DNA from: a virus | Taxonomy: Duplodnaviria; Heunggongvirae; Uroviricota; Caudoviricetes | Strand: one strand, 5' to 3' | Length of the DNA: 40,023 nucleotides | Virus record (IMG/VR): IMGVR_UViG_2874945390_000002 | Span: 1-40,023 of that record | Part shown: piece after piece, positions 12,001 to 18,000 of the stretch | How positions within the stretch are numbered: the stretch's first letter is position 1 | How the letters are laid out: every line of letters begins with the position of its first letter | Program-made: the position numbers

Positions 12001-15000
12001 CAGATCAAATTTTATCAGCGCCAGCGTGCTTCGCTGGGGCGTCCAGTCAGTGATGGATGGTGTGCTCACACTTTCAGGGAGAAATTCGGTGAATGGCCTG
12101 ACGGACTGAGTAACTTTCCGATGGAAATTACCCCTGAGGTAAATAACTACATCAGACACAAACTGATCCGGTTTGCCAAAGGCCACCAGCGGGTTCAGAA
12201 GGTCACTGAAAACGCACAAACAACGATTGATTTATCTCAGGAACGTGATGAACGACGTGAGATGCCGGCAGGCAGTGAGGCCTGGCGCATCATGCAGGCA
12301 AAGCACCAACTCCAGAAAAATATAAACAGTCTGAGTCAGTAAGATGAAAACAGCAGATGCAGCGAAAGGCCGCTGGCCTGAAATATTAGAGCACTTCGGT
12401 CTGCCGCCGATAACCGGAAAAAATCACTTCAAGGGTGAATGCCCGGTATGTGGTGCACGTGGCAAGTTCCGAATTGACGACCGCGACGGTGCAGGAACGT
12501 GGATCTGTGTATGTGGTAGTGGCGATGGTATGAAACTTGTCACCCTGACACAGGCGAAGCCATTTAACGAGATTTGTACCGAAATAGACCGCCTGATCGG
12601 TAATGATTACCAACGGGTTAAAATCCCGGTAACCAGCAGCGCCACCAGCTTACGCAAACGGGTATTGAGCAAGTTTTCAAAACTGGAGGCACTGCGTGGT
12701 ACATCCGGCGCAGCGTATCTTAATTCTCGAGGAATATTCAGTCTTCCTGCTGAGGCGATCCGGTTCAATGCCAGGCAGAGACACAACGGGAGTGTGTTCC
12801 AGTCTCTTTATTCACTTGCTACGGACGATAAAGGGGAGCTGTGCTATCTGCATCAGACCCTGCTTGATGGTGACAAAAAAGCAGATATCGGTAGCAGTGC
12901 AAAGCGCCTCAAATCCCTGCAGGAAGATAACTATCTGGATCACGCTCGTTCTGTAGCTATCCGCATGTTTCCTGTCGCCAGCACTCTGGGTATCGCCGAA
13001 GGCATCGAAACAGCGCTGTCAGCGCACCAGATTTATAACGTGAACACCTGGGCAACCATTAACAGCGGCTTTATGAAAAAGTTCCGCGTACCAGCTGGTG
13101 TTCTGCACCTGATTATTTTTGCCGACCGTGACGAGAACAGTGCCACCGGGCTGGCTGCGGCTTGCGAATGTGCTCATGCCAATCTGATGGCAAAGAATGA
13201 CCTGCAGCGCGTGAGCGTGTACTGGCCGGATCACGATGATTTCAACAATATGCTCATGAACGGTGATCAGGTTCGAGAGCTGGTTTTCCATAAGAAAAAG
13301 GCGGTTGCGTAATGCGTACTGATAATAACGAACATAAAGCACTATTCACCATCCCGACGGCAGCGTACAGCTCCGCCCTCGCAAACATCAAGCCCCTGCC
13401 AGAGCAACGGAGAATCACCGGGCATAAGCAGACTGATGCTTATCTTTGGGTGCTGGAGGTTATCCGTCTGAACGAACCCGCACATCTGGATGCTGCTGAG
13501 GCTGCGCTGGTGAAAATTAAAATTTCCCCAAAAGAGGCCCAGGAACGCTATTCGCGTTATCTGCTGGCGAATGGTGGTGATCCTTTCCAGATTGCTTTCG
13601 GTACCATCGGCATGGATAACCCAGCACAGGCAATCAGGATCGCCCGGGAGAATATCAAAAAAGCAGCATCAGTCAGGGCTACGTTTGGTAGCTATGAAGC
13701 AACACTCGAAGATGTGGAAGCCGAGCGAGTGATCAAGTCTTCCCAGAAATTTATCGACGATCATCTCTGGGGCTGGACTGCGGCAGAGAAAAAAGCCGGA
13801 AGCATTGGCGGCAGCCGCATGAACGAAATTGATGAACAGCGTCGGGCATTTGTTGATGGATATCGCGATGTGCTGCCTGAGCCTTATACGCTGTCTGATG
13901 TTGTTCGCGAGTTCGTTTACTGGGACTGGCTCTACAGTGTTCGCCACACTGCAACTAAAGAACAGGGCGATGAGTTTGGTTACTCTGAGCATCACGAATC
14001 GGTATATGACCGGGAGCGCTACCTTGAAAAATTGCTGGCAACCATCAAACCGGTGACACGGGCTGAAGCCGTGGAGGTGTGTCGTTGGTTTTTGGCAAGC
14101 GGAAAGGGCGAATATATGAAAGACAATGGCGCGGCGGTTATTCTTAATCTGGTTGGGGAGTGTGAATAATGAAGCTTGAGGCATCTCTAAAATACTTCAG
14201 TCCTCAGGGAATGTATATCGGCGACGATGTGAAAGGAACCTCTCCGGAACGTCTTACAGGCACCGATGTTATGGCGGCTATTGGTACCACCAGCAATCGT
14301 GAGCGGTTTGGCCTAGCGGCCTTCTTCGGGAAGGCCGGTATCAGCAAGACTGATGAGCAGATGGCAGTCCAGGCGCTGGCGCGTCACGCGATGGAAATTG
14401 CACCGAAGAATGTGCGTAAAGCAGCTGGTGGTGAATTTGGCTGGTGTATGCTGGTACTGGCGCAGTTTGCTTTTGCTGAGTATTCCCGATCGGCGGCCAC
14501 CAGCGTAACATGCCATAGTTGCAGTGGTACCGGACTAACACCCCGTAAGCAGGTCATTCGTAAGGTTTCATACCCATGGGGTAAAGCACCATATTGGGCC
14601 AGTCGCTCCCGTGCTGTTCGACCGTCAGACTGGGAGAAATGGGCAGAGGTAACGGAAGTTGTACCAGTCGTTTGCGATGTATGTAAAGGGAAGGGAGTGA
14701 TAAGTGCTAGGTGTCGTTGTGGTGGAAAGGGAGAGGTACTGGACCGCAAAGCCACAAGCGAGCGTGGTGTGCCAGTGTTTAAAATCTGCGAGCGTTGTAG
14801 TGGAAAGGGATTCGTATCTATCAAATCAGCTACTGTTCATAGAGCTATTCAAATATACATTCCAGATCTGCACCAGTCTTCATGGTCGCGTAATTGGAAA
14901 CCATTCTATGAAAAATTGATTGATATCCTGTATCAAGGTGAGCAACATGCGGCTGGAGAATTTGAGAAGGCAACGAGTTACTGATCTGAACAGCTTTGGC

Positions 15001-18000
15001 GGAGAGATTTTTGAGCAATCGACTTGACTTTGCGTAAAATTGTCTTGTACTATTTTAAGTATGGGTTTTAGCGCCCAGATAAAAATTAACACGGAACCCG
15101 CCTTATAGCGGGTTTTTTGATTATGGTAAATTTTCCATAAATTTCTTAAATAGTAATTTGTCTTTATTGCTTACAGATTTCTGAATGTTAAGTAATGCAC
15201 GTAAAGGTTTAAGGTTTTCTCTTGTTGCAAAAACCCTAGATTTTTCTAAGCGTTCCTGAACAAAGTTAAAGCGTTCTCTTAATCTTGAAACCTTTATTCC
15301 AAAAGACAACACCTCTCTTTCAGTCAATTCATCTGGGGTGCATTTGCTTAATTTTTCCAGAACCATTTTTATATCTCTTTCATAAAGAAGAGCAATGTCA
15401 TAATCATTCAGCAAGCATTCAGGGTATTGTATTACCCCAATAAGTTCATTTATTGTTTTGTTTTTGTTGTTAACTTTTGGAGCTGAGTCGCTTGTTTGCT
15501 TCTGGGACATAATCTCGTCCAGTTCTAGTTCCTCTGTATTTTTTAATCTTGAGCGGAAAACACGCCCATCACCAGAAGCAGCCATCTTTTTCAATGTTTG
15601 ATAAGCTGCACGCCCGATAATTTTGGGGTCTTTCATGTCAAGAATTCTATGGGCGACCTCATTTAGCGATGGGCTACTGGACTCGATTTGTACCTTGAGC
15701 TTGTAATAGCTAAGAATATCGGCTTTTGCTTCTTTTAGGGCAGTAAGTAAGCGATGGAAATCAGCCTTGCGGCAAAGTTCGATAGCTAAGTCGTTAAATT
15801 TTATACCAAATACATTAGTCCCACACACATGGCCGATATTTGTTTCAAGTCCTTCTTTCGTAACCACCAGAAATCCCTTTTTATGTCCTTTGCGGCAATT
15901 GGATTTTCCGCATGGTATTTCCTCTGGTAGGTCATCGTAGTAACCAAAAACGTCAGAGAGTTGCTGATCATTTAACTCTAATTTGGGATAGTAAGACTCT
16001 CTCGCCTGAATTTCTGCTCAGTCATTCACGCGAATAAAACTTTCGCCATTCTTGAGAAAAATCATACTCGTCCTTACTGTGGTTAGATTTAAAGCATATC
16101 CATTTGATATTTAATCACTATTCTTTTTGTGTTTCACCTAAAACCATTTTGTTTTCATGTTTAATGTGACTGATGTATCATCACTCCCCCAGCCATTTTA
16201 GCTAAATGATGAGAGCGAGTTATAATCGCCAGGTCGCTGGTTCAAGTCCAGCAAGGGCCACCAACCGTCACTAGCTCATCGGGATAGAGCATCAACCTTC
16301 TAAGTTGATGGTGCGGGGTTCGAGTCCTCGGTGGGGGGTGCCCCTATTAAGTTGTCAAGCATGTTATGACCCCTGCGGGGTATAAAAAGTCCCGTCGCGC
16401 ATCATGGCGAACAGAACGTCGCAGCGTCGTCTCGCCAGGGCGATAAGCGCCTGATTGTGTCGTTTTCCCTGACTCATTTTGCGGGTGTAGTAAGCCCTGG
16501 AGAGCGGATCCCTGAGCGCGGCGAAGGCCGACAGGAACAACGCCCGTTTGAGAGCTTTATTACCCCGTCGCGAGGGATGCTCACCGCGTATTGACGAGCC
16601 GGATCGCCGAGTTACCGGCGCAAGGCCAGCATAAGCAGCGAGATGTGCGGCAGAGGCGAAGGCGCGGCAGGCGACCTCGGTGAGGAGTCTGGCTGCGGTC
16701 CTGACACCGACTCCGGGCATACTGGTCAGGACCGGGTAAAGAGGGTGAGCAAGAACTCGCTGTTCTACCTCAAGCGCCACCTCGTCTCTTTGCTTACGCA
16801 GCGTGATGAGCTGGAGTGCCAGACGTGGCAGTACTACGGCAGCGGCATTCGTGCCGGGAACGACGACGGTTTGTTCGGCCAGTGCCTGAGCTATGTCTGC
16901 TGCAAGGCGTTTACCCAGACGAGGCGCAAGTTTGCAGAGCTGGGCTGCCAGCTTCTTCTCACCCAGCGAAGCGAGTTTTTCTGGTGAGGGATATCGCTGG
17001 AGAAGATCGAGTACCGCCGGGTGCTCAAGTCTCGGACCGAGAACGCGCTCCAGTGCCGGATGTATCTGGGTCAGAAGGCCGCGGATACGGTTGCTGGCCT
17101 GCGTTGTCTGTGCGGCAAGATCATCATCGAAGCCGCAGAGCATGGAGAGTTCGGCGATTTGCTCGTCAGCCAGTTTCAGCGTGCGTAGCGCGTGAGGCAG
17201 GGTACGGGCAGCTTCGGCAATGATGGCAGCGTCACGAGCATCAGTTTTAGCTTCACCGGCGTGTAAGTCGGCTATGCGGCGCATGGCCAGTCCAGGGAGG
17301 TATCCGACAAGGACTCCTTCTGAGCGGGCAACGGCGACAGGTAACGCACCGATGGTAGCTGGCTGATCAACAACCAGCAGTATCTGACCATGTTGTTTCA
17401 GGTCAGATATTAGCGACCTGAGTTTGTTTTCGTCGTTGGGTAATGCTTTATCGAACAGGCGTTTACCTGAACGATTAATGGCAACAGCGTGATGCGTATC
17501 TTTACCGACATCAACGCCGATAAAGACCTGGACGGATTCGTAATCGCTGGATTCGGTCATTCTGTCTCCCTTGTATATGGGTTAACCAGATAACCACGGG
17601 GAGCAGGTACCGGCATCCACGTTACAGACGGTCCCGGCAAAAGTGCCTGACCTGACCCCTATTAGCGGTTACCAGCGCCCCACCAGACCCGGTGACATCA
17701 CCCCCCGGATCATGGACGACTGGGGGCAGTAATCATGCCGGGTCTGGCTGGCTAACACCCCATTATAAGGGGTACGAATAAAGTAACGCGGGCTCCCGTT
17801 TTTTATTCGGACAGGAACAGATATGGCAAAGAAAGACGATAACCTGAAACGTCTGAGAGAACTGGCAGCATCGCTGGGACGTGAGCCGGATATCTCGGGA
17901 AGCGCAGCAGATATTGCGCAGCGTGTGGCTGAGCTGGAGGAGGAACTTGCCAATATGGATGACACTGACATCCGGGATAAGTCTGCCCACCCGGAAAATG

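Follow-up and report, generated by a model that had tools for sequence, protein, structure and literature searches.

The Q-lambda family of antitermination proteins was defined as PF03589 by Yin et al. (2022), who described three parts in the Q protein of phage lambda (207 amino acids (aa); Protein Data Bank entries 4MO1 and 7UBJ-7UBN) (PMC9388147). A 60-residue N-terminal segment refolds with NusA into a torus or nozzle that extends the RNA-exit channel; a body of four helices with a helix-turn-helix (HTH) reads positions 1-4 of the Q-binding element (QBE); the third part, a zinc-ribbon arm (residues 114-152), reads positions 11-13, its tip touching the repositioned sigma region 4 (PMC9388147). 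The lambda loading cassette itself reads TTGACT-ta-TTGAATAAAATTGGG-TAAATT-tgactc-AACGATGGG. Other described systems of this kind are the Q-like gp17 of phage phi80 (269 aa), YdfT/QuuQ of the Escherichia coli K-12 Qin prophage (250 aa) and AntQ/IsrK of Gifsy-1, where a promoter and a leaky terminator come after the Q gene and give rise to the short RNA IsrK (PMC4825925). Here we compare with these systems a Q-like gene and the sequences directly downstream of it in a 40,023-nucleotide (nt) stretch of viral DNA (positions 1 to 40,023 of IMG/VR record IMGVR_UViG_2874945390_000002), which we refer to as the window. We put at roughly 85% the probability that the locus comprises a long-arm Q-lambda antiterminator together with its own loading cassette of pR' promoter, QBE, pause element and terminator, intact but largely orphaned in a Shigella boydii prophage remnant.

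The gene lies on the plus strand at 14169-14984, and its start overlaps the stop codon of the upstream early gene (TAATG). The first-pass annotation had reported this 271-aa open reading frame (ORF) and called its product a Q-type antiterminator, and both statements hold. Searches with hidden Markov models against Q families gave a PF03589 match far above the cut-off (171.7 bits compared with 26.7; E = 3.5e-51), and the profile phrog_127, 'anti-termination protein Q-like', was matched over positions 1-252 of 253 (E = 1.5e-96); the Q21 (PF06530) and Q82 (PF06323) families were absent among the Pfam matches at E ≤ 0.1. The best match among solved structures is lambda Q (7UBM chain Q; phmmer E = 1.1e-32), in two collinear blocks that pair residues 1-123 with lambda Q 1-126 (domain E = 5e-21) and residues 180-258 with lambda Q 116-195. 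An AlphaFold2 (AF2) model has a mean predicted local distance difference test (pLDDT) score of 78.7, with low values at residues 10-26 that fit a disordered segment, and Foldseek matched it to lambda Q in the NusA-containing loading complex (7UBN_Q; E = 2.5e-11, target-normalised template-modelling score 0.80). The protein is 100% identical to a Shigella boydii 'antitermination protein', occurs exactly in 27 database sequences, and keeps at full length all of the invariant and nearly invariant residues of 120 homologues.

Although the identity to lambda Q is only about 29%, the homology spans the N-terminal segment, the body with its HTH and the zinc-ribbon arm, and sequence counterparts of all three lambda parts are present. 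The homologue of the N-terminal segment comprises residues 1-60 (14169-14348, plus strand). The HTH comprises residues ~220-250 (14826-14918, plus strand), with the start of the recognition helix at H235-QSSWSR; it aligns to the lambda Q HTH (H4-H5; PMC9388147), and the AF2 model places body helices at residues 220-228 and 236-270. On this homology the ORF is a late-gene antiterminator of the Q-lambda family, of a widespread long-arm subtype, with antitermination activity predicted from lambda.

The arm differs from that of lambda: it has four zinc knuckles, compared with two, and is about 65 residues longer in the alignment. Knuckle 1 (C115-H-S-C-S-G-T-G; 14511-14534), in which C115 is invariant and C118 nearly invariant among the 120 homologues, aligns to the first knuckle of lambda Q, as does knuckle 3. 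Knuckle 2 (C169-D-V-C-K-G-K-G; 14673-14696) would close an extra, first zinc ribbon that lambda Q lacks. Knuckles 3 (C182-R-C-G-G-K-G; 14712-14732) and 4 (C207-E-R-C-S-G-K-G; 14787-14810), all four being on the plus strand, are equivalent in the HMMER alignment to lambda Q C118/C121 and C144/C147, respectively. C182, C184, C207 and C210 thus align to the Cys4 zinc ribbon of lambda, and C115, C118, C169 and C172 form a second set that is additional relative to lambda Q. The earlier description of four evenly spaced CxxCxGxG motifs needs amendment: there are four knuckles, but only three are CxxCxGxG, as the third is CxCxGxG here and in 116 of the 120 homologues, and the gaps of 54, 13 and 25 residues are uneven.

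The first unit also resembles the lambda ribbon in its strands. Residues S147-G176 resemble lambda Q in its second strand and second knuckle (pairwise E = 0.005), and RAVRPSDWEKWAEVTE, before knuckle 2, resembles both the lambda hairpin strand RAVDIAKTELWGRVVE and the second half of the second unit. The strand order predicted by AF2 is knuckle 1, a long hairpin (123-135/158-168), knuckle 2, knuckle 3, a short hairpin and knuckle 4. This strand order and the homology make it very probable that the arm contains two Cys4 zinc ribbons in tandem (knuckles 1+2 and 3+4), compared with one in lambda.

The CxxCxGxG motif is shared with the zinc knuckles of the DnaJ cysteine-rich domain (PF00684), which raises the alternative of a DnaJ-like zinc-finger chaperone, or another zinc-finger protein, in place of an antiterminator. 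PF00684 does match with E = 5e-6, and a weak Foldseek match to DnaJA2 was found (E = 0.65, insignificant). However, the PF00684 match scores 27.0 bits, below the cut-off of 32.7, and covers only residues 169-216; the protein has only three canonical motifs; neither a J domain nor a DnaJ C-terminal domain was matched; the NCBIfam DnaJ models reach 13-24 bits, far short of their cut-offs (338-556); and both full-length homology and fold agree with lambda Q. The profile and fold searches therefore refute this alternative. The cysteine pairing of DnaJ is nested (1+4 and 2+3), unlike that of the window protein, which is probably sequential (1+2 and 3+4) to judge from the same strand order and homology.

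How common is such an arm? The first-pass annotation had considered it unusual, which does not survive comparison with the relatives. Homologues number 635, and the 120 closest, which span Escherichia, Citrobacter, Salmonella, Enterobacter, Klebsiella, Kluyvera, Cronobacter and others, show the CxxC/CxxC/CxC/CxxC pattern in 116 cases. Relatives occur in 250 phage records, including ES18, HK225 and Stx2c phages. In a library clustered at 50% identity, four knuckles were present in 27 of the approximately 53 full-length representatives among the best matches, and two knuckles in 12. Among relatives of the window protein, the four-knuckle arm is thus the majority form and the short lambda arm the minority.

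The same arm is found in two of the described systems. The phi80 gp17 protein is 40% identical over its full length and has the four-knuckle arm including the conserved KVSYPWGK(A/P)PYW...RAVRPSDWE insert, with a different HTH recognition sequence; as phi80 is a viable phage, the four-knuckle architecture is functional. YdfT of the K-12 Qin prophage, which is defective like the window prophage, is 36% identical over its full length and has four knuckles in the same order; it differs in a shorter insert, a CxxC third knuckle and an HTH of the DYQWYK type. A locus from Pectobacterium polonicum encodes a 271-aa four-knuckle Q (match at 4001-4810) with the lambda-type recognition helix TQPTWSR, next to a promoter layout almost identical to that of lambda, including a TTGACC -35-like element adjoining the pause element. 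This protein has the look of a naturally occurring lambda Q with a long arm, and its combination of arm, helix and promoter indicates that a long arm is compatible with the lambda geometry.

Directly downstream of the gene, the sequence TTGACT-TTGCGTAAAATTGTCTTG-TACTAT-ttt-AAGTATGGG is followed by a hairpin, all on the plus strand. The TTGACT-N18-TACTAT element and the hairpin with its T-run, which had been read as a pR'/tR' arrangement, are at the places claimed. The candidate pR' -35 hexamer TTGACT is at 15024-15029 (TTGACT or TTGATT at the same register in related loci) and the -10 hexamer TACTAT at 15048-15053 (TATGCT or TATCAT in relatives). The 18-nt spacer between them contains the QBE-like TTGCGTAAA, within the QBE-like stretch TTGCGTAAAATTG at 15030-15042 (lambda: TTGAATAAAATTG). 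A sequence resembling a sigma-dependent pause element, AAGTAT plus GGG (lambda: AACGAT GGG), is at 15057-15065 and is conserved in relatives. The tR'-like intrinsic terminator (GGAACCCGC-loop-GCGGGTT and then the T-run; 15093-15122) lies between the convergent Q and minus-strand genes; its hairpin (15093-15116, with T at 15113-15118) begins 40 nt past the -10, and the RNA fold has an energy of -14.2 kcal/mol (z = -4.35; 0 of 200 shuffles as good). A Q-lambda gene is expected to be followed by a pR' that holds a QBE between its -35 and -10, then by a sigma-dependent pause element and a terminator, and sequence counterparts of all these lie at 15024-15122.

The order of elements is that of lambda, and the 9-mer lies 27 nt upstream of the pause element in both (TTGCGTAAA and AAGTATGGG in the window; TTGAATAAA and AACGATGGG in lambda). 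The window differs in the distance from the -10 to the pause element (3 nt, compared with 6 nt in lambda), in having no -35-like TTGACT immediately before the pause element, and in its terminator about 36 nt past the pause element, which would give an RNA of ~60 nt rather than the 194-nt 6S RNA. In the phi80 record, a -35, a Q-binding site, a -10 and a terminator are annotated at the equivalent places immediately past the gene, with AACGCTGGG after the -10; its spacer element is TCGCGGA and its pause-like element is 7 nt from the -10. In the Qin prophage the gene is followed by TAAAAT-tttttc (6 nt)-AACGATGGG and by a terminator ~40 nt on, with another spacer element.

To place these elements against a background, we fetched 80 related loci, read 230 nt past each Q stop codon and scored 74 loci, using a strict terminator definition and 647 random background windows from the same loci. 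A strict terminator occurs within 230 nt of the Q stop codon in 60 of the 74 loci, compared with 23 of the 647 background windows, and a pause-like motif followed by a terminator in 52 of 74 compared with 2 of 647. The usual order in almost all loci is a -35, a spacer element, a -10, a -10-like hexamer with GGG or GGA, and a hairpin with a T-run 24-90 nt on.

These counts bear on the explanation that the hairpin is merely a shared bidirectional terminator for Q and the convergent 314-codon gene, with promoter and pause matches arising by chance and no loading cassette at all. The hairpin does sit between the two stop codons (14984 and 15121), the minus strand also folds (-12.9 kcal/mol, z = -3.25), and promoter-like hexamers are not enriched in the region: 13000-18000 contains 4 promoter-like sites compared with 5.5 ± 2.5 in shuffles, so that the hexamers alone are not above chance. 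Yet the minus-strand hairpin has no U-run directly after it, and the promoter, pause-like motif and terminator recur past Q despite entirely different downstream genes, including those of phi80 and K-12 Qin. With the frequencies above and the tracking of the HTH type by the spacer 9-mer at a fixed, lambda-like offset, described below, we regard this explanation as highly improbable; it is the comparison with relatives, and not the hexamers by themselves, that bears out a pR'/tR'-type cassette.

The spacer 9-mer follows the class of the recognition helix. In the class of the window protein, QSSWSR, the 9-mer TTGC[AG]TAAA was present in 13 of 14 loci; helices of the form (V/I/E)RTW(T/A/R)R go with TTGTCCG(G)AA (16 of 20 loci), the partner spacer element of the VRTWTR helix being TTGTCCGAA; (L/I)D(T/S)WKK goes with TTTCCC[GT]AA (21 of 21), (V/I)ATWEK with TTTCCGGAA (7 of 7) and the lambda-type QPTWSR with TTGAATAA (2 of 2). 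Helix class and 9-mer pair without crossover among loci that keep the cassette, and the exceptions are loci in which the whole downstream region has been replaced. The QSSWSR class covers 43-98% protein identity and ranges from Escherichia to Providencia and Pantoea. Within it, 12 of 13 loci have precisely 27 nt between the start of the 9-mer and the pause-like hexamer, the distance also found from TTGAATAAA to AACGAT in lambda. The -10 is less fixed, sitting 3 or 5 nt ahead of the pause element, and the flanking sequences are divergent. The pattern supports the 9-mer as a candidate Q-binding element read according to HTH class.

Several observations nevertheless weigh against an active lambda-like cassette, in addition to the chance frequency of the hexamers. 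Because the QBE adjoins the stretch that encodes the HTH and the two are inherited as one, their association is weaker evidence than independent covariation would be. A second promoter candidate, TTGAGC-N18-TAAAAT, overlaps the first at 15011-15040. In the subgroup of the window the -10 (TACTAT or TATGCT) is only 3 nt upstream of the pause element, compared with 6-7 nt in lambda, phi80 and K-12 Qin. The window QBE has a G at 15034 where close relatives have an A, and the changes in the QBE, -10 and pause element could weaken activity in this strain. For the protein, the AF2 model scores just 60-80 pLDDT across the arm.

The second promoter candidate, which would place TACTAT at +1 as a pause element, is disfavoured, as relatives of the VRTWTR type lack TAAAAT and keep TTGATT-N18-TATGCT. 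With the promoter as we read it, transcription would start about 7 nt past the -10; the pause element would then straddle +1 and the paused RNA would be ~13-14 nt, rather than the 16-17 nt of lambda. The predicted pR'-tR' RNA (15056-15118, plus strand) has a small 5' hairpin, GGGUUUUAGCGCCC, ahead of the terminator, and might have a function of its own, as IsrK and StxS do. We considered whether this RNA is isrK (Rfam RF01394) and rejected that identity, as 15056-15118 scores 26.1 bits where the gathering score is 50, which leaves it outside the family. Gifsy-1 AntQ itself is annotated as similar to phage 82 Q, which belongs to a family other than Q-lambda.

The surroundings of the cassette show what a switch at this position could still control. 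A relative from E. coli that is ~95-96% identical and intact has, in order, Q, the convergent 314-codon gene, two tRNA-Arg genes, the small RNAs (sRNAs) STnc100 and AsxR, an esterase gene, holin/lysozyme/Rz and terminase. In the window, the convergent gene (phrog_7003, unknown function) is on the minus strand at 15121-16065 and has a nonsense codon at codon 16 (W16, TGG to TGA, at 16018-16020); it is 95% identical to the intact E. coli homologue by tblastn, which shows a single in-frame stop and rules out a frameshift. The suggestion that the cassette controls this adjacent cargo does not hold: because the gene is on the opposite strand, convergent with Q, pR' cannot express it and could only make antisense RNA.

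Collinearity with the E. coli relative stops at 16334, inside the first tRNA-Arg gene (anticodon TCT; 16265-16338, plus strand), the 3' acceptor strand of which is replaced from 16333 by the end of an ISEc20 element. This insertion sequence (IS) of the IS110 family occupies 16333-17792 on the minus strand, exactly at the deletion junction, with its transposase gene at 16364-17560 (domains DEDD_Tnp_IS110, PF01548, and Transposase_20, PF02371); it is 99.7% identical over 1,460 bp to the annotated ISEc20 of phage PPompW. Homology to FI and the tail genes resumes at 17792, a point that corresponds to intergenic sequence right behind the major capsid gene of intact phages. The first surviving late gene past the junction, encoding the DNA-packaging protein FI, is at 17823-18224 on the plus strand (phrog_92, 9e-49), and in the intact relative the major capsid gene is directly upstream of FI. 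From these two boundaries it follows that the window has lost the second tRNA, STnc100/AsxR, esterase gene, lysis cassette, terminase and all head genes. The earlier description of the late operon as deleted is partly right: it applies to the lysis and head genes, whereas FI and the tail genes are still there, in pR' orientation, with IS4-family copies splitting the tape-measure gene (22616-23962, minus strand) and the J gene (30514-31860, plus strand).

Some further features adjoin this region. A tRNA-like sequence is present at 16192-16260; the homologous tRNA of the E. coli relative has the anticodon TCG, not TCT; and the ISEc20 end TGGGGGGT partly mimics the lost TGGCGGT of the tRNA-Arg acceptor strand. 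In unrelated PPompW phages ISEc20 also lies just past a tRNA cluster downstream of Q, which suggests that the element has a preferred insertion context. In the E. coli relative the two sRNAs are at 12273-12538 (STnc100, 158.7 bits; AsxR, 63 bits), after the tRNAs downstream of Q. A 2026 preprint ties PasD/STnc100 sRNAs to PF03589 Q genes. We rejected PasD/STnc100 as the pR'-tR' RNA, given that STnc100 in the relative lies after the tRNAs (12273-12482), off the cassette, in a region that is deleted in the window. Elsewhere in the window, two IS3-family, IS600-like copies (ORFs of 100 and 272 aa) are found in the early-left region (3409-4565 and 5719-6875), and an IpaH-type type III effector gene with LRR_TTSS and NEL E3-ligase domains (38212-40023, minus strand) runs off the window end; such a gene is typical cargo of lambdoid prophage remnants in Shigella.

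Upstream of Q, the early genes for helicase and primase are intact, and Q is translationally linked to intact early genes. The gene directly upstream (13312-14169, plus strand), which overlaps the Q start, encodes 285 aa and matches phrog_6204 (E = 1e-182) but no Pfam or NCBIfam model; its position is conserved in relatives. Repressor-like genes are present upstream on the minus strand, from which we infer that Q would be made only on derepression.

The extent of this decay brings in a further alternative, that the cassette is a dead relic whose features have simply persisted through recent degeneration, with Q never expressed or no longer loading at pR' in this prophage. The two IS600-like copies, the ISEc20-associated deletion, the IS4 copies inside the tape-measure and J genes and the nonsense codon in the neighbouring gene are all in keeping with it, as is a comparison with the cassette of a 98%-identical E. 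coli Q gene, from which the window cassette differs at 10 of 136 positions, including one base of the QBE, two of the -10 and one of the pause element. Set against this, the changes leave intact the bases that matter most (in the -10, T1, A2 and T6; in the pause element, A2, A5 and T6 plus GGG), Q is full length with the conserved residues of its homologues retained, the exact protein recurs in 27 database sequences, and the upstream helicase and primase are intact. We consider a dead relic possible but unlikely. Domestication into a tailocin-like system of Q and tail genes only was rejected: IS4 interrupts both the tape-measure gene and J, and the lysis genes have all been lost.

For a functional loading cassette, the sequence of events can be proposed by homology to lambda. 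Sigma70 RNA polymerase would start at pR' and would pause when sigma region 2 rebinds the -10-like element in AAGTATGGG. Without Q, transcription would terminate at 15093-15122 and release an RNA of ~60 nt. On derepression of the early rightward operon, Q would be made and would bind the QBE through its HTH and arm, contact the paused polymerase and travel along with it as a terminator-resistant complex. Read-through would then run antisense over the nonsense-mutated gene, through the truncated tRNA-Arg and ISEc20, and into FI and the IS4-disrupted tail genes. In phi80, by comparison, the late operon of holin, endolysin and spanins is intact.

Two extensions of this scheme, taken together, appear improbable: a variant mode of loading by the long arm through its extra ribbon, or an action of the orphan Q or the pR' RNA beyond their own operon. 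In the first case, the extra zinc ribbon would touch DNA, sigma region 4 or the beta flap as well, and this additional contact would permit loading at a pause element only 3 nt past the -10 and on a shorter nascent RNA than the 16-17 nt of lambda. In the second, the intact Q and pR' would act host-wide, either through global antitermination or toxicity on SOS induction, or through a short regulatory pR' RNA; Gifsy-1 AntQ/IsrK is a precedent for effects of short pR' RNAs and orphan Q proteins in their own right (PMC4825925).

The cassette is a textbook late-gene switch: database entries for the Q family number in the thousands, and an identical protein has already been annotated in Shigella boydii. 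Our literature searches returned nothing specific that describes the four-knuckle arm, no structure or biochemistry of the double-ribbon arm of phi80, K-12 Qin or the window locus, and no study of the role of the extra ribbon or of the tight spacing between -10 and pause element in the window subgroup. The Q-lambda structures solved so far show the short-arm form, which is the minority among relatives of the window protein. In the comparative set, the five HTH classes, each paired with its own 9-mer that keeps a constant 27-nt distance to the pause element, form a recognition table that could guide specificity swaps or the design of orthogonal antitermination switches. For Shigella, the genome map shows a single ISEc20 copy marking the loss of the lysis and head module from a prophage in which the switch survives.

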